Origin: Melioribacter sp.
GTDB lineage: Bacteria; Bacteroidota; Ignavibacteria; Ignavibacteriales; Melioribacteraceae
Direction of reading: 5' to 3'
DNA: 64,000 nucleotides
Assembly: GCA_023250955.1 (NCBI GenBank)
Contig: JAHEZQ010000022.1
Coordinates: 4,958-68,957, forward strand
Of the stretch, positions 7,089 through 61,176 are shown in pieces; the stretch's first letter is position 1; each line of letters opens with the position of its first letter. Made by a program: the position numbers and the translations under genes. The notes beneath the pieces were generated by a model. The model saw only the letters and a program-made list of their open reading frames with translations. It was not told the DNA's origin and did no database searches.

Positions 7089-7550
7089 ATGGCAAACACA
7101 TATTCACAAATGTACATACAGATTATATTTTCAGTTAAAGGAAGAGTTAATCTAATCCGTAAAGAATTTCGAGATGAATTATACAAATACATTGCCGGTA
7201 TAATTAAAAACGAAAAACAAAAATTACTAGCCATTGGCGGTACCGGTGATCATATACATATTTTTATATCTTTGAATCCTGATAAAAAATTAGCAGATCT
7301 AGTCAGAGTGATAAAATCAAATTCTAGTAAATTCATTAATGAGAAAAAATATATAAGAGGAAAATTTAACTGGCAGGAAGGTTACGGTGCATTTTCATAT
7401 GCGCATTCACAAAAGGAAACTGTGATTAATTATGTTTTGAATCAAGAGAAGCATCACGCTAAAAAGACGTTTAAAGAAGAGTATTATAAATTGCTAAAAC
7501 TTTTTGAAATTGGATTTGATGAAAAATATTTATTTGATTGGATCGATTGA
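7089..7550 (+). CDS. IS200/IS605-family Y1 (HUH) transposase-like protein, RAYT type
   Basis: 153 aa. HUH motif in HIHIFISL and C-terminal Tyr region INYVLNQEKHH. Single gene without tnpB. Followed immediately by a REP-like hairpin array. Confidence 0.8.
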   Translation: MANTYSQMYIQIIFSVKGRVNLIRKEFRDELYKYIAGIIKNEKQKLLAIGGTGDHIHIFISLNPDKKLADLVRVIKSNSSKFINEKKYIRGKFNWQEGYGAFSYAHSQKETVINYVLNQEKHHAKKTFKEEYYKLLKLFEIGFDEKYLFDWID

Positions 7551-7557
7551 ATTTTAT

Positions 7558-7952
7558 GCCGCTCCTACGGAGCTGATGTTTTATATGTTATGTTTTGTTA
7601 TCTAGATTTCGCCCCTACGGGGCTAAATGAATAAAGATTAATTAATCTATAGTCAGTGCCTTTAGGCACGACATATTGGTAGAGCCTTTAGGCACGACAT
7701 ATTGGTAGAGCCTTTAGGCACGACATATTGGTAGTGCCATAGGCATGAAATATTGGTAGTGCCATAGGCATGAAATATTGGTAGAGCCTGTAAGCACGAA
7801 AAATTGGTAATGCCGTAGACACGAAATATTGGTAGTACCGTAAGCACGAAAAATTGGTAGTGTCGTTGACATGAAATATTGGTATTACCGTAGGCACGAC
7901 ATATTGATAATAAGGTAGTCATGGCATTTAAATAGCTCCGTTAGGAGCGGCA
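7558..7952. repeat. REP-like hairpin region downstream of the RAYT-like gene
   Basis: Short GC hairpins GCTCCTACGGAGC (7562-7574), GCCCCTACGGGGC (7611-7623) and GCTCCGTTAGGAGC (7935-7948). The outermost 18-19 nt (7558-7575 tgccgctcctacggagct and 7934-7952 agctccgttaggagcggca) are reverse complements apart from one loop base, and they bracket the tandem array. Confidence 0.8.
7656..7909. repeat. tandem array of ten 25-26 bp hairpin-containing units
   Basis: Unit starts at 7656, 7682, 7708, 7734, 7759, 7784, 7810, 7835, 7860 and 7885. Consensus is GTGCC-(T)TTA/ATA/GTA-GGCAC GA(C/A)ATATTGGTA. Each unit has a 4-5 bp stem and the units abut with no spacers. Confidence 0.9.
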
Positions 7953-9950: not shown

Positions 9951-10144
9951 GTAAACAACGGCGTTGCAACTAAACCGCCGCCCAGAACAGCAATGCAACT
10001 TTGATAAACTAACGCCAATGATTTTATAAATACTTTTTTATTGCAACCTACCTTTAAGAGCAACCAACTTTTACAATGCAACTTTATTACCTAATAAATG
10101 CCGCTATGTTTAAAGCGGACGGCTTGAAGAACTTGTTAGCTGCA
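9951..10144 (-). repeat. attC-like long junction element, copy 1 (3' frame of locus A)
   Basis: In gene orientation: TGCAGCTAAC AAGTTCTTCAAGCCGTCCGCTTTAAACATAGCGGCATTT ... GGGCGGCGGTTTAGTTGCAACGCC GTTGTTTAC. Homologous to 53296-53487 (last 39 nt 34/39 identical) and more distantly to 54786-54959. Confidence 0.75.
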
Positions 10145-10780
10145 TTCACCTTTAGATTTTACTTTTTCATCAAGTAACGCTTTATAAGTCAATTTTTCCT
10201 TTATTAATTCAGCTATTATTTTTTGTGAACTTTCGTTATTTGCGGCAACATTTGATACCTCAAATTCTGCTATTCGTAGCGTTGGATTTAAACCATTTAC
10301 TGATGGTAACAAATCTCTAAAACAATCAAGATATGCCCTTTGAGCTGTTCGTCCACCAACAAAATTAAAATCAACAGTAGTTTTTGATTTTCTATACTTA
10401 TCAGCTTCAACTTTGTGCACATTACAAAGTAATTTGTATTTTTTTATATCGAAAGCCGTAGCCAGTTCATTGGGATAACAATCAAGAGTTTTTAACCGAT
10501 ATGAACTAAAATGCTGATATTCATCAAACTCAAAAATGAAATTATAATCACCACCGAAATATGCATCACAATCAAGTGACACATTTTTTTTGTTCTGATT
10601 TGCTTTTATATCACCTTTCAACGTATCGAATATTTTTGAAATAACTTGGAAATGATGTCCAAAATATTCTTCGCTATGTTTATTTATGAACCAAGGAAAA
10701 GTAATATTCGTTTGTGCTGACACATTTAATACTTTTGCGACTATTTCTGTTATTAATTTTTGTTTATCACCAACTGGCAT
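10136..10780 (-). CDS. hypothetical protein, possible restriction-endonuclease-like fold
   Basis: 214 aa. LDCDAYFGGDYNFIFEFDEYQH resembles the D...E-x-D-x-x-H arrangement of Vsr/DUF559-like nucleases (weak, by eye). GAGG RBS. Same module as the DUF2130-like gene. Confidence 0.35.
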   Translation of the reverse strand: MPVGDKQKLITEIVAKVLNVSAQTNITFPWFINKHSEEYFGHHFQVISKIFDTLKGDIKANQNKKNVSLDCDAYFGGDYNFIFEFDEYQHFSSYRLKTLDCYPNELATAFDIKKYKLLCNVHKVEADKYRKSKTTVDFNFVGGRTAQRAYLDCFRDLLPSVNGLNPTLRIAEFEVSNVAANNESSQKIIAELIKEKLTYKALLDEKVKSKGECS

Positions 10781-10844
10781 ATTACCTCAAAATTTTTAAG
10801 TGAGAATATTTTTTTAATATCACACGTTTACGATAAATTGTAGC

Positions 10845-12104
10845 CTATTCTAATTGTTTATTGCTGTCTTCAAGTTGTTTAACTTCTTGAGTAAGTGAAT
10901 CAATTGCAATTCCATCTACTCGACCCCAAAAATTAATTACACTTTGCTTGGCTTGGAAAATATGCGCTTCTCTTTCTGCAAATCTTTTCAATGATTCTTC
11001 TTTCTCTTTTTGTAGTGATTTATCCATTTTTTTAAATGCATCAAGAATTCCAATTATATGATTTTGAAAATCACTGCTTCTTAGATAGTCGTAAAGCATT
11101 TCCATTTTTGTGCCCTTATCAGTTTGCGAAGCTAAAGCCGAATATTGTTTAATTAATCCATCTCTTAATAGCGTTGTCATTATTTTAATATCATTTAAAT
11201 TACAAACCCATACTCCATCTCTGAAGTGTGTTTCTTTATTATCCGTTGGCATTGTTTGCGAAACTATTACACAAATGTCCGCCTTAACTCGACGACCATC
11301 ATCTTTGAGTTTTGAAACCCAATCTTTTCCAAATGTCTGAGTTTGTTTTCTTTCATATAGTATAATCCCACTTGGCTGACCAACATTATTTTTCACAACT
11401 TGAAGAATATCTGCACCGGTAACACCGGAAGGAACATCTTTTATCTCATCAATAGGAAAGCTATATCTTAGAAAATCTCGAAGCTCGATTTCTTTAACTT
11501 CACCAGATAATTTGTTTGAACCTTGCTCTAGTTTTGTTTGAGCATCTTCAAGTCGTTTGTTTAAATCATCAATTAGTTTATCTCGTTTTTGAAGCTCTGT
11601 CTTGCTCTTTTCAGTCTCGGTCACTTTTATTTTTTCTTTTTCTTGCAAAAGAAGTTCATTGAATTTCTTTTCGGCATCAGCCTCAATCTTATCTTTTAAT
11701 TCAGATTTCTCTCTTTGAACCCTTGCTAGTTCGCCCTTTGTTTTGTTTAGCTCTTTTACTTGTTCTGACTTTTGCTGCAATTCAGTTTCAAGCGCTTTTA
11801 GTTGTTCTGATTTTTCTTCATCAATTTGTTGACGAACAGTTTTTTCGATTTTTGTTTTTTCTATCTTGAGTTTACCTTGAACTTGTTTTTCAACAAGTTC
11901 AGTAAGTTTTTCCTTTTCTTTTTCTAATTCTTTTTTGTCGGATTCAATTTCTTGAAACTTAGATTGAAGTTCTTTCTCTTTTTTGACAATTTTTTTGTCA
12001 TAGTCTTTCTTAATTTGTGTTTCAAGTTGGTCATAAAGAACATCATTAACATTAATTGCAGCACCACATTCTGGACATTTGATAAAATTATCTTTCTCGC
12101 TCAT
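10845..12104 (-). CDS. DUF2130-like protein: CxxC knuckle, long coiled coil, C-terminal PD-(D/E)xK nuclease-like domain
   Basis: 419 aa. N-terminal KCPECG, about 200 aa of K/E-rich heptad-like sequence, then GADILQVV...GIILYERK (D...ExK). Paralog of 53513..54751. Confidence 0.7.
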   Translation of the reverse strand: MSEKDNFIKCPECGAAINVNDVLYDQLETQIKKDYDKKIVKKEKELQSKFQEIESDKKELEKEKEKLTELVEKQVQGKLKIEKTKIEKTVRQQIDEEKSEQLKALETELQQKSEQVKELNKTKGELARVQREKSELKDKIEADAEKKFNELLLQEKEKIKVTETEKSKTELQKRDKLIDDLNKRLEDAQTKLEQGSNKLSGEVKEIELRDFLRYSFPIDEIKDVPSGVTGADILQVVKNNVGQPSGIILYERKQTQTFGKDWVSKLKDDGRRVKADICVIVSQTMPTDNKETHFRDGVWVCNLNDIKIMTTLLRDGLIKQYSALASQTDKGTKMEMLYDYLRSSDFQNHIIGILDAFKKMDKSLQKEKEESLKRFAEREAHIFQAKQSVINFWGRVDGIAIDSLTQEVKQLEDSNKQLE

Positions 12105-12124
12105 AATAATGACTCCAATTTAAT

Positions 12125-12149
12125 TGCAGCTAACGGCTTGTTATAGCGC
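12125..12149. other. short module junction TGCAGCTAAC-GGCTT-GTTATAGCGC
   Basis: The right inverted-repeat arm of the DUF2130-A module and the left arm of the OLD module are separated by only 5 nt. Confidence 0.8.
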
Positions 12150-12152
12150 TAC

Positions 12153-13934
12153 TTAAGAATATATTTTAATTATCTTTTCCTTAAAACCTTGTTTAATAAC
12201 AAAATCATCCGCATCAACTTTCTTCAAAGCAAAGAATGGTTTACTTTTATTAGACTTATCAGTTATTCCAATTTCTTCTTCTATATCATTTTCTAATATG
12301 ATAGTGCTACCGTAATTTTTATCTATTGCATCTTCTATACGTTTGGAAGATTTATCAGCACTTGCAATACCATCTGGTTTTTTATCTGCTTGATGGTCTT
12401 TGTCATAAATTGCTATATAGGGTAAGCGGAATTTATTTAGTAATTCTATATATGGAACAAAAGCGTCTTTACTTCCACATTCAATCAGAGTATAATCATA
12501 CCTAAAAATATTTAGTTGTTTTGCTAAGAAAGGAATAACTGTTTTATCGGAAGGACCTTCAACTAAAACAACCTTTTTTGAGAAAAATAATTCACTTCTA
12601 TCCGGATTAAACCAGTGGACAAGATTAAAATTCTTCTTGTCATCGACATCTGAAAATAAGTCTGTTTTGCATTGAAATATTGTTGTGCCAGCGGTATCAT
12701 TTTCTTTTTTCACAATACAAATTGACTTATACATATTCATATCAATAAATGAACTTGAATGAGTGCAAAGCAATATTTGATTGTCAGAAGCAGAAAGTAA
12801 AACCAACGATGAAAACAACTCTCTTTGTGCTTGCGGATGCAAGTATAACTCTGGTTCTTCAAAAATGAAATACGCGGAATTAGACGTTTGCCTAATAGGA
12901 CGATCTTCCTCTGGCGTGGTAGTAGCATTTTCTCTTTCTTCTCTAATAATATTTGCCCAAGTTTTAATTAACGCAAATATTAGTGCCCTTTGTAAGCCGT
13001 GCCCCTTTCTTGAAATATCTGTTTTAATGCCATCATTTACCCAAACAGAAGTTCCAACTTTGAAAACATCATCAAAATTAGGTGGAGTTATTTCAACATC
13101 TATTTTAGTATTCCAAGATGATAATTCTCGTTCGAGACGTTGTTCAAATAGATTTAGTTCTGGTGGACGAGCTGTGTTTGCATTTCCATTCTCATCAATT
13201 TTATTTAATGAGTTTACCATTGTAACGATTTTATTCTTTGCGTCTTTGTAATCTTGGTTTGTCTCAGACAATTTTTGAATTACAGAAGAATATAATTGGT
13301 TAAAGAGTGTGCTTCCTTTCAGATTCAATTCTTCTGAAGCCGACTTGACGGATGGGATATAAAACACTGAACCAAATATTCCTTTTGCAACATTTTTAAG
13401 ACCCAAAAAGTTGGTAGTCTCTAATTCGTAAGAAAAAGTAATAGCAGTATGATTTTGTTCAATGTATTGGTTTATAGCATTAATAAATATTTCTTTAGTG
13501 ATTCTTCCATCGGCAGGGATTAAATTATATAAAGGTAGCTGACTTGCCGTTTCTCTTTTTAAATAGTTTGAAACATTTTCTTCTTTCAGCCATTCTTCAT
13601 TCGGATTTTGTATGTAACCATTATAAGAAAATTGACCAGATTTATTTGCGGTTTTTCTAACCCTAATTTCATTTTCAGATGTCAGATATTTCTTAAACTG
13701 ATTCTTATCAAAATCATCCAAATTAGAAAATGTTACTTCGACAAATAATTCATCAGAATTTTGGTTGAAATCAAGTTCATCATGTTTGATTTCTCCAAAG
13801 AAATACAACAAGGCGGAAAGTAGATTTGATTTACCGTGATTATTTTGACCGATGAAAATCATTACTTTTTCGTAATCAAGTTCAATCTCTCTTATAGAAC
13901 GCCAATTTTTAATATGAACATTTTTAATAACCAT
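12153..13934 (-). CDS. OLD-family nuclease (ABC-type ATPase fused to Toprim domain), P2 Old-like class 1 architecture
   Basis: 593 aa. Walker A GQNNHGKS, Walker B/D-loop FIFEEPELYLHP, H-loop CTHS. C-terminal Toprim VVLVEGPSDK ... IAIYDKDH. No helicase partner gene. Confidence 0.8.
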   Translation of the reverse strand: MVIKNVHIKNWRSIREIELDYEKVMIFIGQNNHGKSNLLSALLYFFGEIKHDELDFNQNSDELFVEVTFSNLDDFDKNQFKKYLTSENEIRVRKTANKSGQFSYNGYIQNPNEEWLKEENVSNYLKRETASQLPLYNLIPADGRITKEIFINAINQYIEQNHTAITFSYELETTNFLGLKNVAKGIFGSVFYIPSVKSASEELNLKGSTLFNQLYSSVIQKLSETNQDYKDAKNKIVTMVNSLNKIDENGNANTARPPELNLFEQRLERELSSWNTKIDVEITPPNFDDVFKVGTSVWVNDGIKTDISRKGHGLQRALIFALIKTWANIIREERENATTTPEEDRPIRQTSNSAYFIFEEPELYLHPQAQRELFSSLVLLSASDNQILLCTHSSSFIDMNMYKSICIVKKENDTAGTTIFQCKTDLFSDVDDKKNFNLVHWFNPDRSELFFSKKVVLVEGPSDKTVIPFLAKQLNIFRYDYTLIECGSKDAFVPYIELLNKFRLPYIAIYDKDHQADKKPDGIASADKSSKRIEDAIDKNYGSTIILENDIEEEIGITDKSNKSKPFFALKKVDADDFVIKQGFKEKIIKIYS

Positions 13935-13954: not shown

Positions 13955-14181
13955 GCGCTATAACTATTAATTAACCCGCCAAAAAGAAGGCGGACAAGCC
14001 CGCCAACGGATAGCATGGTGGAAGTTGTTTATCTACTTGTAAATTATTTGTTTTTATTTCATTACAAAAAGCAGAAAAGGAAAATCTATTTTCTTTGTTC
14101 TATGTATCTAAACAAAGTACCCCATTTATAGAAGCGTTTTTGGTACTAATTTAACTTAGTGTAAAAGAAAATTTTAGTCAA
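13955..14181 (-). promoter_or_regulatory. conserved 5' frame of locus A: promoter-like boxes plus structured leader
   Basis: Gene orientation: TTGACT (14181-14176), 17 nt, TAAGTT (14158-14153). The leader has stems AGTACC/GGTACT (14116-14147) and CTTTGTT/AACAAAG (14093-14117). It ends GGCGGGTTAATTAATA-GTTATAGCGC. Homologous to 55795-55992. Confidence 0.6.
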
Positions 14182-14422
14182 CCGTTTTCTTGACCCAGCC
14201 AAAAAGATCCGTCAAAAAGATGCCGGACAAGCGGCGGGCAAGCTCACCCGCCCGGATTAACCGGGCACCCTCTCCTTTGTAAGGAGAGGATGGGGTGAGG
14301 TTCTTAGTTGTAAAGACGGGATATATCCCGTTTCTACGTTTTAATTTGTTGTGTTATATCATGGAATAATTGTAATCAAAACAGATATTAAATAAGTTGT
14401 AATAACTAAAATTTAAGAAAAT

Positions 14423-53512: not shown

Positions 53513-54751
53513 TCATTTTTCCAATTCTTCGATTCTAATAAATTTACTTTTTTCAGTAAGTAACAACTTAGATTTTTGTTCAATTCTGTTTTGAATTAAG
53601 TCCTTAAGTTTATAGTCAATTATACCAATATCGGAAAATAGATCACGATAAATATGATAACGTTTCTCCCACGTCTTCTTGTGAGATGAAATTTCCACTT
53701 TGAGATCTCTTCCTAGTTCCATTAGCTGACCAGCGACATCATTCATTTTATTGTTATAATCATTGCTTGATAGATAATCATAAACACGTTGAACAGCTTT
53801 TTGTTTTGCCTCGTTTGACATTTTCAGCAATGCTATTTTTACAAGACTTTCACGGAGAGTATAAGTTATTGGTTCAAGACTTACTGGACTTATAACAAAG
53901 ACGGTATTTTCCACAAAGTAATATTGTTTCTTTGAAGGGAATGCATTTGTAACCAATATTGCAAAATCAGCTTGGCGTATTTTGCGAGCTTCTTTAGCTT
54001 GTTCGATATGATTTTTGCTAAATGTTTTTACTTTTTTGCATTCGTAGACAATTTTCCCAATTTCTTTTTCTTGTTCGAGAACTATCTGAATAATGTCGCC
54101 AGCTTTTCCAGGATGTTCAAATTTGTCTTGGGGAAAAAGCTCCTTGAGCTTTGCAAGAAGTTTATCTTCTTCTAATAAACCTTCAATTTGTGGAGTTATA
54201 CCTTTCTCTATTTGCTCTTTCAGTTTTTTGATTTCGTCATTAGCTTGTTCATATTTCTTAGCAGATACTTTGAGACTGTTTTCGAGCTGAGACATTTTGT
54301 TTTTAGTTTTTTTAAGGTCGTCTTGCTGCTTCTTGAATTCTTTTTTCTGAGTCTCAACTCCTTTATCAACTCCTTTTTTAATCTCAGTCTTCAATTTATG
54401 GTTGAAAGATTTTTCTAATTGATTTCGCTGATTTTTCATTTGCAACGAAGCTTTCTTTGCTTGTTCAGTCAAAATGCGTTTAGAATCACGCAATAATTTT
54501 GCTTGTTGTTTCTTAAATTCATTCGCTTGTCCCTTAACTTGATCTTTATAAACTTTTTCTTGCTCTTTAAGTTTCTTCCTCTCGGCTTCCAACTTCTTTT
54601 TATTAAGTTGTTCTTGTGCTTTCATTTTCTTCTGTTCAGCTACAAGATGTTTTATATGTTCTTGTTTGTCTTTCCACAAGCCAAGAGCTTTATCATATTC
54701 AGTTTCTGTCAAAGGTTTTCCACAAACTGGACACTTTAATGTTCGTTCCAT
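53513..54751 (-). CDS. DUF2130-like protein (CxxC knuckle, coiled coil, PD-(D/E)xK-like C-terminal domain), paralog B
   Basis: 412 aa. KCPVCG, long K/E/Q-rich coiled coil, GDIIQIV...GKIVYECK (D...ExK). AAGGAG RBS. Confidence 0.7.
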   Translation of the reverse strand: MERTLKCPVCGKPLTETEYDKALGLWKDKQEHIKHLVAEQKKMKAQEQLNKKKLEAERKKLKEQEKVYKDQVKGQANEFKKQQAKLLRDSKRILTEQAKKASLQMKNQRNQLEKSFNHKLKTEIKKGVDKGVETQKKEFKKQQDDLKKTKNKMSQLENSLKVSAKKYEQANDEIKKLKEQIEKGITPQIEGLLEEDKLLAKLKELFPQDKFEHPGKAGDIIQIVLEQEKEIGKIVYECKKVKTFSKNHIEQAKEARKIRQADFAILVTNAFPSKKQYYFVENTVFVISPVSLEPITYTLRESLVKIALLKMSNEAKQKAVQRVYDYLSSNDYNNKMNDVAGQLMELGRDLKVEISSHKKTWEKRYHIYRDLFSDIGIIDYKLKDLIQNRIEQKSKLLLTEKSKFIRIEELEK

Positions 54752-54785
54752 ATTTAGACTCCTTTACATTTTAGTAAAAACATAT

Positions 54786-54959
54786 GCGGTATAACGGCGT
54801 TACGGTTAAGCGGACGCCACGAAGTGTCGGATACCAACAACATGATTTATTGTTTATAAATTTCATTTGCACAAATGTCGAACAAAAACCAAATCAACTA
54901 AAACTACAAATACCACGACCGACTACAGCGTTCCGCATGAGACGCTTGTTATACACAAA
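54786..54959 (-). repeat. attC-like long junction element, copy 3 (between the two modules of locus B, diverged)
   Basis: Gene orientation: TTTGTGTATAAC AAGCGTCTCATGCGGAACGC ... GGCGTCCGCTTAACCGTAACGCC GTTATACCGC. It shares end motifs and central blocks (caaatgt, caactaaa) with copies 1 and 2. Confidence 0.65.
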
Positions 54960-54964
54960 CTCAA

Positions 54965-55786
54965 TTAACTATTTGCATATTCAACACACTTTGCTCTTAA
55001 TTCTGATATTTCATTAAGTGCTACTGGATTTTTGGCGAGATTAATTAATGGAAGATATTTTCTAATTAGATAACTCTCCATATTCTCAAAATCACCAGCA
55101 AATTCTATCCAGTTAACTACTAAGTTTGTATTAATCCAGTTGATAATGGTGGATTCGTTTCCTTTGTTGAACTTATAATTACGTTTGTTAGAATGGTTTT
55201 TCAATGAACCTTTTATTGGAAGGAAACCTAAAATAGCACCAAGGCTTCTAAAAAACGTTCCGTGACCCCTCGCCCTTAATTCTTGATTTAAAAAACGAGT
55301 ATTTAGACTTTCTGTCGCAATACCAATGTAAATGATATTGTGATTCCGTTTTTTAAGATGTTCGTTAAATGGGGCGGGAATTGAATCTTTATTTTTAATT
55401 CTGATACAATATATTCCAGGAACAGAGGGCACTTTTTCATCAATAGTATTTGCATCAATATAGTTGTCGGAATTAAATAAATATTTTTCCAGCTCTTTTG
55501 AATCAACAGAATTTTGAAAATCAACTTTGGGAGGATGTTCATTGATTAATTGAACAGGTGAATTTTTAGATAATCCAGAAATAACTTTTAAAATGACAAT
55601 ATTTCCTTTGCGATCAAATAAATGTGAATATTTTCTAGTTCTTCCGTGAATTTGAAATGCTGTAATTAAAGAGCCATCTTTCTTTTCATACCACTTACTT
55701 TTATTTAGTAGGTCTGCAATTTTTTGTGTGGTCATCGAGTTTTTATTCTCAGCTAATACTTTTATTATTGCCTCGTGAAGTGTCAT
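54965..55786 (-). CDS. HARE-HTH-like winged-helix domain fused to GIY-YIG-like nuclease domain
   Basis: 273 aa from ATG 55786 (RBS AAGGAAG); see the rejected 55858 start. N-terminus MTLHEAIIKVLAENKNSMTTQKIADLL...HLFDRKGNIVIL resembles HARE-HTH. C-terminus VPGIYCIRI...NIIYIGIA...R...E...N resembles GIY-YIG. Confidence 0.6.
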   Translation of the reverse strand: MTLHEAIIKVLAENKNSMTTQKIADLLNKSKWYEKKDGSLITAFQIHGRTRKYSHLFDRKGNIVILKVISGLSKNSPVQLINEHPPKVDFQNSVDSKELEKYLFNSDNYIDANTIDEKVPSVPGIYCIRIKNKDSIPAPFNEHLKKRNHNIIYIGIATESLNTRFLNQELRARGHGTFFRSLGAILGFLPIKGSLKNHSNKRNYKFNKGNESTIINWINTNLVVNWIEFAGDFENMESYLIRKYLPLINLAKNPVALNEISELRAKCVEYANS

Positions 55787-55794
55787 ATTCTTCC

Positions 55795-55992
55795 TTTGTG
55801 TATAACTATTAATTAGCCCGCAGCAGACTTCAACTCTTGGAATGTTATCTACCAACATTTATTTTGTTTTAATTAATTTGCAGACAGAAAAGGAAATCTA
55901 TTTTCTTTGTTCATATCTTCAAACAAAGTACCCCAATTATAGAAGCATTTTTGGTACTATCTCAACTTAGCTTAAAAGGAAATTGATGTCAA
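55795..55992 (-). promoter_or_regulatory. conserved 5' frame of locus B: promoter-like boxes plus structured leader
   Basis: Gene orientation: TTGACA (55992-55987), 17 nt, TAAGTT (55969-55964). Same two stems as in locus A. It ends GCGGGCTAATTAATA-GTTATACACAAA. Confidence 0.6.
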
Positions 55993-57547: not shown

Positions 57548-58045
57548 ATGCCTCTAAATTTAGAACTAAAAATCAAAGTAGAATCACATACAAAATTAAT
57601 AAATGCGCTTAGAAGAATAAATGCTGAAAAAAAAGGCATTCTTAAACAAAAAGACGTTTACTACAAAACTAGGAACGGTTTACTCAAACTACGTATAGAG
57701 GGAAGTTCCTACACTTTAATAAAATATTTACGTAATGAAAAAGGAAAACGTTGGAGTAACTATGAATTACTGCGGTTAGAAGGGAAGAATCCGGAAAAAT
57801 ATTTGAAAGATGTCTTTGATGTTGATACAATCGCTGAGAAAAAAAGAATTTTATATCTATATAAGAATACACGGATTCATCTTGATGAAGTTAAAGGACT
57901 CGGAAAATTTCTTGAACTGGAAACACTTTTGGTTTCAACACGAAAAGATGCAGAAGCGCGTTTTAAGGAAATAATAAAATTGTTGAACCTTGATCTTAAC
58001 AAACAAATTAGAAAGTCTTACAAATTATTAATGCTTAGTAAATGA
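57548..58045 (+). CDS. CYTH-domain protein (class IV adenylate cyclase / triphosphatase-like)
   Basis: 165 aa. N-terminal NLELKIKV ExExK-type motif. Size typical of CyaB-like CYTH. Confidence 0.7.
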   Translation: MPLNLELKIKVESHTKLINALRRINAEKKGILKQKDVYYKTRNGLLKLRIEGSSYTLIKYLRNEKGKRWSNYELLRLEGKNPEKYLKDVFDVDTIAEKKRILYLYKNTRIHLDEVKGLGKFLELETLLVSTRKDAEARFKEIIKLLNLDLNKQIRKSYKLLMLSK

Positions 58046-61000
58046 TTCTGACAAAAGAAAATATTGGAAATGTAAATGTTGATCTTTTGATTAGCGAAAA
58101 GATTGATGCATCCAAGCTGAGCGAATTATTGCTGATTGTTCCAACGAACCGTAAAGCAAGAAATCTTAGGAAAGAATTTATATCAAGAATTCCAAACCGT
58201 GCAACATCCGGATTAAATATTGAAACACTCGGAACGATTTCAACAAAACTTCTTTCTGTTTCACACCCCTTCAAGCAGTTGAGTGAAGCTGCAGCAACTG
58301 TTTTTATCAGACAAAGTGCTGCTGAAATTGAACTGAAATATTTTTCTCTTTATAAGAATGAAATTCCTTTTGGTGCGTTAGACCGGATAAAGAATGTAAT
58401 TTCAGAATACAAACGGCAAGGAATTACACCGAGCTTGTTGCGAAGCGAAGCCGGGAAGCTGGAACAATCAGAAAAGCAAAAAGCATTAGACATCGCCGAC
58501 ATTTATGAAAATTACCGCAATAAATGCTTTGCGCTAAATGCTTATGAAACCGGAGATATTTATTCTCAGCTGAATCAGCTAACAATCAAAGAATTTATTG
58601 TAAACTTCCGCAAACTGTATGATGAAGTTAATTTGATAATTATAGATGGATTCAATGAGTTTTCTAATCCGGAAATAGAAATCATTCAAAAACTTTCCAG
58701 CGTTGGCAACACAAAATTATTTTTGAGTTTCGATTATTCACCAAATAATAAATCAATCTTTTCCCATCTTGATAAATGTTACGATAAACTTTATCAACTA
58801 GGATTTATTAACATCGAAGAGAAAAACATTCATAACCAAAATAAATTTCACACGATCTTGCGTGATAAATTATTCAATTCGCAAAAGCTTACATCAAAGA
58901 TTGATTATACTGTAAGCATTTCAAAAATTATTGCCAACGACCGCGAAAAAGAAATCGAACTAATCACACGGGAAATAAAAAAAATAATCACTTATGAAAA
59001 TTGTGAACCGCATAGAATATGTCTAGCGTTTAATCTAATTCAGAATTACTCATCGACCATTAAAGATGTATTCGAGAAGTACGGATTGCCGTATAATCTA
59101 TCGGATAGAACACCGCTTGATAATTCTAATCCCGTTACCGCAATTGTAAATTTTTTAGAGATAGCTGAAAACGATTTTTATTTCAAAAACATTTTTCGCG
59201 CATTAAGCAGCGGATTCATAGATACTAATAATGTTGATGTCTCTAATCTTTACAGACTATCATCAGAATTAAAAATCGTTTCCGGAAAAGAGAATTGGAC
59301 CAACTCACTTAAAGATGCAATCGCAAATCTTGATTACAGCGGTGATGATGATAACGACAGCGACGCAAAGAAAAGCCTTTATAATAAGGCTTTGAGCGAC
59401 ATTCAATTTATATCGGAATTACTAAAACCTTTCGAAGGGAAATTACCGATTGAGGTATTTCATAAGAGGTTTAGTGATTTTATTGTTAAGACAAAAATTC
59501 CTTTTAAGCTTCTTTCGATAGAAATAGACCAGGAGAAAAATGTAAGAGCGTTTACCGATTTTCTTGAAACAATGTCTGAAATATTCCAGCTCTTATCCGA
59601 AGAATATGGTAATGAAAAAGCATTTACGATTGATTTTTATATGGACCAAATACGCACAGCATGCAACTGGGCGCGTTTCAATGTAAAAGAGAAATCAGAT
59701 TACGGCGTGCAGATCACTACTCTCGATGAAATTCGTGGATTGGAGTTCGATTATCTTTTTATAGGCGGGCTATGCGATGGGGATTTGCCTACGCGTTATT
59801 CACCGGAAATATTTTCTTCAGGTTCATTCAAGAAACAAGCAAAGATTCATCAAACCGAAGAACGCTACCGTTTTTATCAAGCGCTTTGTACATGGAAGAA
59901 GCAATTATTTTTGACTTACCCGCTGACCGAAAGCGGAAAAGAAATTATTGTCTCAACTTTTCTGGACGAGTTTGAGGAAGTCTTTTCTATTTCATCAAAA
60001 AATGAAAACGATTATGAAGACATAATTTTTTCGAATGAAGATTTGCAAACTCTTATTGGAAAAAACGGAACGGAGTCTGTCAGCGGTAAAATGAAAAGTA
60101 ATCTAACGGTTGATCTTGATAAAATATCACACGCACTAGAAATAGATAAGATCAGAAATTCTGAAGAGCAAGTTGAATCTCCGTATTCCGGAAATATTTC
60201 TTCCGATGATCCGGAAATCACAACTAAGTTGAATTCATTCCTATCAAAACAATATTCTATTTCACAGCTGGAAACTTACGCTAAGTGCCCGTTCAAGTTT
60301 TTTGTTGAGCGTGTATTGGGAATAGAAACAATTGAAGAACCAACCGAAGATATTGAAGCGATAGAAATGGGAAGATTGCTTCACTCAATATTATATGAAT
60401 TTTATTCTTCGCTGAGAGAGAAAAAAATAAAACTGGTTAATTGCGATGAAAAAACTTTTCAGCAGGCAGAGAAAATAATTTTTGAGATTGCTACAGACCA
60501 GCTTCAGTTAACGGCATTTAGATCGCCACTAACATTTTATGAACGCGAAAAAATTCTTGGTCTAAACGGAAATAAAAAAGAATCAATTCTGTATAAGTTC
60601 TTAGAGACCGAACGGAAATGCGAAGATGATTTTATCCCTATGTTCTTCGAGGTAAGTTTTGGAAGGTTAAAAGAAAGTGGTTCTGATAAAATATTAAGCG
60701 ATCAGGAACCGATCATAATTGACAACATAAAACTTCGCGGAAAGATTGACCGGATAGAGGTAGATGAAAAAATAAAATCATTCAACATTGTTGATTACAA
60801 ACTTAGCGGAGCAAAACCAAGTTTTGATGATCTGAAAACAGGAATATCGCTTCAGCTTCCGGTTTATCTTTTCGCTGCAAGTGAATTACTTAGCAGAAAA
60901 TTCAATGGTAAATATTCTCCCAATGAAATGTTCATCTACTCTTTGAAATATGCTGTAGATGATTTTGGAAAAGATAGAGTAACATCAACAAAAAAAGGAG

Positions 61001-61176
61001 ATGAGATTCAATCGGTGGAGCAGCTTGTTGATAAATCAATAGAACATGTTAAAAATTATGTTGAAGATATATCGAAAGGGAAGTTTTACCTCTCAAAACT
61101 TGAAGAAAGGGAAAACAAGGTATGCCGTTTTTGCCAGTTTAGAACTGTCTGCAGGATAGACGAGGTGAGCAACTAA
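58042..61176 (+). CDS. AddB-like PD-(D/E)xK nuclease family protein with C-terminal Fe-S Cys cluster
   Basis: 1044 aa. Degenerate helicase-like N-terminus (LLIVPTNRKARNL), C-terminal nuclease (CPFKFF ... GKIDRIE ... IVDYK ... CRFCQFRTVC). ATGA overlap with the CYTH gene. No AddA/UvrD-like gene is adjacent. Confidence 0.7.
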   Translation: MILTKENIGNVNVDLLISEKIDASKLSELLLIVPTNRKARNLRKEFISRIPNRATSGLNIETLGTISTKLLSVSHPFKQLSEAAATVFIRQSAAEIELKYFSLYKNEIPFGALDRIKNVISEYKRQGITPSLLRSEAGKLEQSEKQKALDIADIYENYRNKCFALNAYETGDIYSQLNQLTIKEFIVNFRKLYDEVNLIIIDGFNEFSNPEIEIIQKLSSVGNTKLFLSFDYSPNNKSIFSHLDKCYDKLYQLGFINIEEKNIHNQNKFHTILRDKLFNSQKLTSKIDYTVSISKIIANDREKEIELITREIKKIITYENCEPHRICLAFNLIQNYSSTIKDVFEKYGLPYNLSDRTPLDNSNPVTAIVNFLEIAENDFYFKNIFRALSSGFIDTNNVDVSNLYRLSSELKIVSGKENWTNSLKDAIANLDYSGDDDNDSDAKKSLYNKALSDIQFISELLKPFEGKLPIEVFHKRFSDFIVKTKIPFKLLSIEIDQEKNVRAFTDFLETMSEIFQLLSEEYGNEKAFTIDFYMDQIRTACNWARFNVKEKSDYGVQITTLDEIRGLEFDYLFIGGLCDGDLPTRYSPEIFSSGSFKKQAKIHQTEERYRFYQALCTWKKQLFLTYPLTESGKEIIVSTFLDEFEEVFSISSKNENDYEDIIFSNEDLQTLIGKNGTESVSGKMKSNLTVDLDKISHALEIDKIRNSEEQVESPYSGNISSDDPEITTKLNSFLSKQYSISQLETYAKCPFKFFVERVLGIETIEEPTEDIEAIEMGRLLHSILYEFYSSLREKKIKLVNCDEKTFQQAEKIIFEIATDQLQLTAFRSPLTFYEREKILGLNGNKKESILYKFLETERKCEDDFIPMFFEVSFGRLKESGSDKILSDQEPIIIDNIKLRGKIDRIEVDEKIKSFNIVDYKLSGAKPSFDDLKTGISLQLPVYLFAASELLSRKFNGKYSPNEMFIYSLKYAVDDFGKDRVTSTKKGDEIQSVEQLVDKSIEHVKNYVEDISKGKFYLSKLEERENKVCRFCQFRTVCRIDEVSN

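Follow-up and report, generated by a model that had tools for sequence, protein, structure and literature searches.

Does a nuclease gene that recurs beside different partners mark a multi-component defence system, or a mobile gene that settles wherever such systems gather? We addressed this question in a 64,000-nucleotide stretch of the Melioribacter sp. contig JAHEZQ010000022.1 (positions 4,958 to 68,957 of the forward strand; hereafter the window), in which two loci each carry a gene of the DUF2130 family. Open reading frames (ORFs) and profile searches gave the order OLD, DUF2130-A and DUF7255 for locus A, on the minus strand. In locus B, also on the minus strand, DUF2130-B lies beside a GIY-YIG endonuclease gene, with 213 bp between them. 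An earlier, sequence-only reading of the window had proposed that DUF2130 is the constant component of a defence-type system with interchangeable nuclease partners. Its five ORFs are all present where it placed them, and profile searches agreed with its domain guesses for all five proteins; its coordinates cover locus A, and locus B falls outside them, at 53513-55858. Our analysis suggests instead that loci A and B would be two small, horizontally acquired defence islets among housekeeping genes, not one conserved multi-gene system. We consider it an even call that DUF2130 is an autonomous, roaming defence-island nuclease that is simply co-resident with OLD and GIY-YIG. The pattern of variable partners would then arise mainly because DUF2130, a mobile and self-contained nuclease gene, hops among defence islands, plasmids and integrative elements, landing by whatever is there.

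Build and neighbourhoods of DUF2130

Both DUF2130 proteins score above the gathering cut-off of the PF09903 profile (26.7 bits), DUF2130-A (419 amino acids (aa); 10845-12104, minus strand) at 164.6 bits (E 3e-48) and DUF2130-B (412 aa; 53513-54751, minus strand) at 78.0 bits (E 9e-22). They share 25% identity (E 5e-18) and are, on this comparison, true but distant paralogues. The KCPECG or KCPVCG knuckle, the K/E-rich helix and the D...ExK motif that had been noted in the two proteins are all there. In a 62-sequence alignment spanning both clades, C10, P11, C13, E205, D232, E251 and K253 (DUF2130-A numbering) are invariant and no further Cys or His is conserved; with only two conserved Cys, a single chain therefore gives half a zinc site. 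DUF2130-B has the same build as DUF2130-A (C7 and C10; D219, E237 and K239). The AlphaFold2 model of DUF2130-A (predicted local distance difference test, pLDDT, 81) comprises a CPxC beta-hairpin, an unbroken helix over residues 19-192, an alpha/beta core over residues 197-325 (11130-11516, minus strand) with the invariant catalytic residues, and C-terminal helices over residues 330-418. Among its best Foldseek matches in the PDB were BstEII, MspJI, the SPARDA nuclease, DdmD, BamHI and ACE1 (E 1.6e-3 to 0.3), E-values that are modest because the long helix dilutes the score. A search by sequence found no solved structure for DUF2130, DUF7255, the GIY-YIG protein or the 344-aa family described below. 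DUF2130 has already been catalogued as a PD-(D/E)xK family of unknown function (Steczkiewicz et al. 2012, PMC3424549), and alignment and model agree on an intact PD-(D/E)xK catalytic site, with cleavage itself being predicted. We propose that DUF2130 would dimerise through its coiled coil and a shared zinc site and would cut DNA.

We found DUF2130 to be a sizeable family, with 2,252 clusters (at 50% identity) retrieved at E <= 1e-30 in a profile search of 1.84 billion representatives, nearly all of them 380-550 aa long. The neighbourhood sample is small, as the scan of the genome collection gave 11 loci. When 28 independent DUF2130 loci were tallied by hand, 20 proved to have a gene for defence, toxin-antitoxin, restriction or mobility no more than three genes away, which bears out the earlier claim that DUF2130 sits in defence-type neighbourhoods with changing neighbours. 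What does not follow is that the changing neighbours are partners, since they are not kept in close relatives. In 12 independent loci that hold relatives of DUF2130-A (59-85% identity), no gene for OLD, DUF7255 or GIY-YIG is present. The 85%-identical homologue adjoins a HEPN protein, and neighbours of the DUF2130-A relatives include the PADLOC candidate system PDC-S06 (1262 bits; carried by an integrative conjugative element), a giant helicase that bears an MTES_1575 nuclease domain, integrases, and DUF4365, PDDEXK_1 and 8xMP proteins. The same holds for DUF2130-B, whose 95%-identical homologue lacks a GIY-YIG partner and adjoins a HigBA-like pair. Its 80% relative has a DISARM-like helicase on one side and an AriA-like AAA_15 ATPase on the other, with Abi_C close by; its 73% relative has a BsoBI restriction-modification system and a NOV_C protein in these positions, and its 61% relative is in a mobile-element-like region. 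With other neighbours at 95%, 80%, 73% and 61% identity, we rejected DUF2130-B and GIY-YIG as a conserved pair.

The wider distribution of DUF2130 is likewise that of an accessory gene. Relatives of DUF2130-B at least 60% identical to it (60-95%) occur across Ignavibacteria, Bacteroidota, Planctomycetota, Acidobacteriota and Chloroflexota. Among 72,556 plasmid records, 44-47 carry DUF2130, and its neighbours there are type I restriction-modification genes, a complete Gabija system, a reverse-transcriptase-like gene, an NB-ARC protein, a Ppl-like ATPase with a RelE toxin-antitoxin pair, AbiE and SIR2/HerA, PIN-SIR2, ParB, or nothing notable. Several DUF2130 neighbours outside the window are complete known or candidate systems (Gabija, PDC-S06, type I and BsoBI restriction-modification, AbiE, SIR2/HerA, and the RelE toxin-antitoxin pair with the Ppl-like ATPase). 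Phage collections are essentially devoid of the family: IMG/VR holds no close relatives of DUF2130-A, DUF2130-B or DUF7255, in PHROGs, DUF2130-A, DUF7255 and the GIY-YIG protein are without a family and DUF2130-B drew only coiled-coil-type noise, and the only prophage occurrences are seven Helicobacter prophage records. On these results we rejected a phage origin.

Single loci add detail. In L007 (8832-14697), a fatty-acid oxidation cluster is interrupted between enoyl-CoA hydratase genes by two inserted genes, DUF2130 and a 145-aa ORF, which makes this locus a clean case of DUF2130 as cargo. In two Ignavibacteria genomes (L013 6261-7793, L014 10001-11533), a tyrosine integrase is directly followed by a variant of 510 aa that is extended at its N-terminus, and in L010 (9282-10463) one copy, probably a pseudogene, is broken into two ORFs. 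Genes for 8xMP (octameric membrane protein, PF24838) lie near DUF2130 in two unrelated loci (L016 11541-12056, L098 8919-9971). An AAA ATPase beside DUF2130 in L122 was considered as OLD-like and rejected, as it is Lon-like.

Several observations weigh against an autonomous defence nuclease. The case for defence is one of guilt by association, drawn from a hand-tallied sample that has no matched control. Eight of the 28 loci are without defence context, and some relatives of DUF2130-A lie beside housekeeping genes (rsgA, enoyl-CoA hydratases, an aminotransferase). Other points concern independence from neighbours: five DUF2130 clades (those of the window, L043-45, L078, L098 and L108) have same-strand OLD-family or AAA_15 neighbours, and a sister clade of the window OLD has a fixed, overlapping downstream gene for a protein that, by alignment, has a DUF2130-like nuclease core. 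In locus A itself, the three genes are co-directional with short spacers (48 bp between OLD and DUF2130, 64 bp between DUF2130 and DUF7255), neither of which contains a terminator-like site, an arrangement that suggests one transcript.

The loci without defence context also bear on another explanation, in which DUF2130 would be a recombination, repair or replicon-maintenance nuclease of mobile elements, similar in architecture to RmuC or to a Rad50-type tether, and its proximity to defence genes would reflect a shared accessory genome. RmuC consists of a coiled coil plus a PD-(D/E)xK domain and limits recombination in E. coli, and DUF2130 shares this two-part plan, with long helices at the N-terminus and a restriction-endonuclease-like domain behind them. 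Unlike RmuC, DUF2130 carries a Zn knuckle and is a mobile gene of patchy occurrence, not a core gene; homology to RmuC (PF02646) was not detectable, with no Pfam match at E <= 0.1 and an hhalign E of 0.23 against E. coli RmuC. The other resemblance is to the zinc hook of Rad50/SbcC. DUF2130 has a two-Cys CPxCG directly before a very long helix, a full zinc site would need two chains, and Rad50 alignments of DUF2130 begin at the hook CxxC. These alignments are weak (NCBIfam Rad50 E 3-5e-4; 1L8D and 6ZFF E 0.36-0.38), and the CxxC of DUF2130 is N-terminal (residues 10-13) with one helix after it, not an apex between antiparallel arms, while the head is a PD-(D/E)xK nuclease and not an ABC ATPase. 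At sequence level the likeness to the hook is a resemblance only and not statistically significant. Gene context lends this explanation some support as well, with copies on conjugative plasmids and integrative elements adjoining ParB, ProQ/FinO, ArdC, resolvase and integrase genes, and some copies being translationally coupled to rsgA. A core repair role is argued against by the patchy distribution and by transfer across phyla at 60% identity or more; two divergent copies lie in one 64-kb window, and most neighbours are immune genes, not repair genes. Altogether we regard a recombination, repair or maintenance function as improbable.

OLD and its DUF2130-like neighbours

To judge whether the DUF2130 of locus A acts with the gene before it, the OLD protein has to be placed first. 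The OLD gene (12153-13934, minus strand) encodes 593 aa with Pfam matches to AAA_15 (E 9e-36) and OLD-like_TOPRIM (E 2e-16). Its ATPase domain has a Walker A motif at G29-S36 (GQNNHGKS) with K35 and EEPE at 359-362, and its Toprim nuclease has E459 in the VEG motif and D511-x-D513. In PADLOC-DB v2 the 'Old' model matched at 240 bits, above every GajA and AriA model, and the best solved relative was the Class 1 enzyme TsOLD (6P74; E 1e-22), with the EEPE, VEG and DxD motifs aligned. OLD adjoins DUF2130-A on one side and, on the other, a non-coding stretch that leads up to galK. It has neither a UvrD-type helicase gene nor one for a reverse transcriptase or AriB beside it; no search for a retron non-coding RNA was made. 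The scheme of OLD classes rests on gene context (PMC10568477, PMC12796447), and by this scheme the lack of an adjacent helicase, reverse transcriptase or AriB gene makes the window OLD a Class-1-type protein. It is like P2 Old, TsOLD, Vibrio cholerae Vc OLD and E. coli YbjD in carrying ATPase and Toprim on one polypeptide without a partner of the helicase, retron or AriB type, and unlike them in belonging to a tight three-gene cluster.

Other OLD-containing systems fit less well, and the earlier judgement that an OLD of one polypeptide without a UvrD partner is neither Gabija nor PARIS holds. Gabija (Class 2 OLD GajA with the UvrD-like GajB) also has an OLD-family ATPase/Toprim nuclease as its central enzyme, but locus A has no UvrD-type helicase ORF and GajA models score below 'Old'. 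PARIS combines the AriA ATPase with the AriB Toprim; the ATPase part of the window OLD matches an AriA model at 138 bits, but one chain carries both ATPase and Toprim, and a DUF4435/AriB gene is absent. The OLD gene of locus A adds a new member to a known kind. For Class 1 OLDs, protection by one gene alone has been found with P2 Old, Vc OLD and YbjD (PMC12392090, PMC13261556, PMC10568477), and the window OLD would, as others of its kind, protect singly by nicking or degrading invading DNA.

Relatives of this OLD complicate the picture of a standalone enzyme. We collected 71 metagenomic loci with OLDs 50-58% identical to the window OLD, 43 of which have an informative same-strand downstream gene. 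In 12 of these 43, this gene encodes a 344-aa protein and either overlaps or directly adjoins the OLD stop codon (-61 to +20 bp), and most of the 12 have a 71-aa KTSC gene upstream of OLD. The OLDs with the 344-aa gene form one clade, so that the gene set is an inherited cassette; the window OLD lies outside that clade. The 344-aa protein has no Pfam or PADLOC match. Its invariant residues E97, D134, E150 and K152 align in register with E205, D232, E251 and K253 of DUF2130, and hhalign of the two families gave a score of 38.9 over 82 columns (E 2e-4, probability 47%); among the controls, a reversed alignment scored 17.0 and DUF7255 17.9, and 22 column shuffles stayed at or below 24.2. In three more loci DUF2779 proteins lie downstream of OLD, one of them with PDDEXK_1 and RNase_H_2 domains. 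True DUF2130 genes also flank the same OLD subfamily, upstream with a 27-bp gap in L043-45 and downstream in L078. Many members of the subfamily thus carry a conserved downstream gene of PD-(D/E)xK type, unlike what 'standalone' implies; the window OLD has its co-directional three-gene cluster, and related loci have the fixed 344-aa gene, DUF2130 or DUF2779.

The cassette of KTSC, OLD and 344-aa genes, with overlapping or abutting ORFs, was found within L025-L060 (e.g. L037 5789-8833, L033 5785-8815), often beside Eco57I-like restriction-modification genes or a TOTE-type primase-helicase. DUF2130 abuts a different OLD-family system in L108 (4689-9895; Aliarcobacter butzleri plasmid NZ_CP104379.1), where it ends 1 bp before a Gabija operon (GajA 633 bits, GajB 897 bits). 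Gabija in L108 looks like a three-gene unit with DUF2130, and a literature search for three-gene Gabija variants was unproductive.

These adjacencies raise the possibility that OLD and DUF2130 of locus A form a cooperating two-nuclease module, a context-defined OLD class not yet described. OLD would sense or nick foreign DNA, DUF2130 would be a second nuclease or a tether that completes cleavage, and this second component would come in exchangeable versions, namely DUF2130, the 344-aa family and perhaps DUF2779. The fixed position of the 344-aa gene after related OLDs, the alignment of its core with the catalytic residues of DUF2130 above the controls, and the true DUF2130 genes flanking this OLD subfamily all point in this direction, as do the 48-bp spacing in the window, with no terminator-like site, and the position of DUF2130 against Gabija and against the AriA-like ATPase. 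Moreover, the DUF2130s that adjoin OLD-family ATPases are at most 40% identical to one another, and from this divergence the pairings would have arisen independently. Set against this are the 12 close DUF2130-A relatives, none with an OLD neighbour, the majority of OLD relatives, which are without DUF2130, and the position of the window OLD outside the 344-aa clade. The link between the 344-aa protein and DUF2130, at 47% probability, may be generic PD-(D/E)xK similarity. Those Class 1 OLDs that have been characterised, and Gabija, do without a partner of this kind, and OLD-family genes are common in defence islands, so that some chance adjacency is expected. We therefore hold a two-nuclease module in locus A to be possible, on the less likely side. 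The broader proposition, that this OLD subfamily normally works with a second nuclease of DUF2130-type PD-(D/E)xK core (the 344-aa protein, or full-length DUF2130 as in the window, L043-45 and L078), strikes us as slightly more doubtful still. A pairing of OLD with a DUF2130-like protein would count as a new OLD class, since gene context is what defines these classes.

DUF7255 and the GIY-YIG protein

The third gene of locus A (10136-10780, minus strand) encodes a 214-aa DUF7255 protein (PF23913, E 5e-10; 39.7 bits, cut-off 27). DUF7255 is a tightly conserved Bacteroidota family whose members are 57-75% identical to the window copy. The EFDEYQH motif noticed by the sequence-only reading is real and invariant across the family, as E84-x-D86-E87-x-Q89-H90, and stands with D72 and R144/Q147/R148. 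The structural model (pLDDT 84, predicted template modelling score 0.79) had no significant match in the PDB, giving weak ones to restriction-endonuclease-like, DUF2726 and Vsr-like viral proteins (best E 0.03). The protein probably has a restriction-endonuclease-like fold, and that it is a nuclease is a guess from D72 and E-x-D-E-x-Q-H.

The usual partner of DUF7255 is a 385-aa Schlafen/AlbA_2 gene located 1-6 bp downstream. This pair, with a DUF7255 of 198 aa, occurs in L017 (6001-7758), L020 (6001-7758) and L114 (5001-6759), sometimes with a third gene of 202 aa; an integrase is adjacent in L017, and DUF2130 lies two genes off in L020. DUF7255 and Schlafen/AlbA_2 seem to be a conserved pair of variable regions that has yet to be described. 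No AlbA_2 gene is present in the window. The window DUF7255 and its closest relative (75% identity) are orphans, the relative being alone near an MNT-type gene, and the DUF7255 of locus A would be the orphan half of this separate two-gene module. A 214-aa protein after DUF2130 and PDC-S06 in L002 was tried as a DUF7255 homologue and rejected (BLASTP E 0.04, no Pfam match); its equal length is coincidental.

Could OLD, DUF2130 and DUF7255 nevertheless be one obligate three-component system? The trio is co-directional and tightly spaced, and it is bracketed by terminator-like hairpins on the minus strand, one just upstream of the OLD start (13989-14004) and one 18 bp past the DUF7255 stop codon (10101-10118), which form the edges of the three-gene unit; the proximity of the DUF7255/AlbA_2 pair to DUF2130 in L020 could be read in the same sense. 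The trio was found nowhere else, however: none of the 71 OLD loci has DUF7255, DUF7255 is normally followed by the AlbA_2 gene that the window lacks, and its closest relative stands alone near the MNT-type gene. With the trio unique to the window we rejected the obligate system, which we consider highly improbable. The idea of a single system is further weakened by the nature of the neighbours, which in both loci include kinds known to work alone, namely a Class 1 OLD and a winged-helix (wH) GIY-YIG protein of type IV.

The latter, the GIY-YIG endonuclease of locus B (54965-55858, minus strand; 297 aa), has GIY_YIG_2 over residues 148-289 (E 3.7e-34) and, at its N-terminus, a HARE-HTH match of 19.6 bits (E 1.2e-3) that is below the cut-off of 25.9. 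Fusions of wH and GIY-YIG have been characterised as type IV enzymes acting alone (PMC11037411). The locus B protein is like two of these, Ahi29725I and Apa233I, in having a C-terminal GIY-YIG domain and, putatively, an N-terminal reader-like module of helix-turn-helix (HTH) type; it differs in that its N-terminal module is only a weak HARE-HTH match, and the likeness is one of architecture. As judged from its domains, the build is that of single-protein modification-dependent (type IV) restriction enzymes, with the N-terminal match weak. In locus B, the second DUF2130 would then have as its neighbour a winged-helix/GIY-YIG endonuclease of type IV restriction that acts as a single protein.

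Setting of the loci and significance

Both loci lie among housekeeping genes. Locus A is flanked by a sodium:solute symporter gene and galK, from which it differs in strand and in G+C content (0.31 vs 0.37-0.39); no attachment-site direct repeats were found around it. The flanks of locus B are genes for an AhpC-type redoxin and DUF2461. Of the 490 bp that separate OLD from galK, 14190-14340 contains G+C-rich palindromic elements, including a perfect hairpin at 14314-14333. Near locus B, at 57548-61176, a CYTH-domain gene is followed by an AddB-type helicase-nuclease gene (ADDB_N, UvrD_C, PDDEXK_1); both genes probably serve double-strand-break repair as a housekeeping function. At 7089-7550 lies an IS200-like Y1 transposase gene (Y1_Tnp, E 1e-24), followed at 7648-7934 by about 11 tandem units of 25-26 nucleotides, each with a GGCAC...GTGCC hairpin. 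The region 7089-7934 looks like a repetitive extragenic palindromic (REP)-type array beside a REP-associated tyrosine transposase, and the 'ORFs' at 7662-7922 are repeat artefacts.

DUF2130, DUF7255 and the GIY-YIG protein are without a model in PADLOC-DB v2. DUF7255 and the GIY-YIG protein matched nothing there, whereas DUF2130-A and DUF2130-B gave only weak coiled-coil noise against LmuB and, for DUF2130-B, also ZorA. No multi-gene system in PADLOC-DB v2.0 was matched by all components, OLD being the only protein to match a model. In the full-text literature, searches for DUF2130, DUF7255, COG4487 and PF09903 found no defence paper. The suspicion that no characterised system has this composition was thus confirmed for the database and the literature searched, relative to which both DUF2130 as a defence-island nuclease and the pairing of OLD with a DUF2130-like protein are new.

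DUF2130 is a sizeable family found in many phyla, with an intact nuclease site and an unusual build of knuckle plus long helix, and its placement in defence islands makes it a concrete candidate for testing. The finding also bears on Class 1 OLDs, for which the mode of action, and whether they are truly solitary, have only begun to be tested. The recurring pairing of OLD with a DUF2130-like gene, above all in the KTSC-OLD-344-aa cassette, provides a specific two-gene hypothesis. If the pairing is only co-residence, the window holds an ordinary pair of defence islets, one with an OLD plus unannotated passengers. If the two-nuclease reading is true, it would give the DUF2130 family its first function, as the zinc-bridged, coiled-coil nuclease arm of an immune system.

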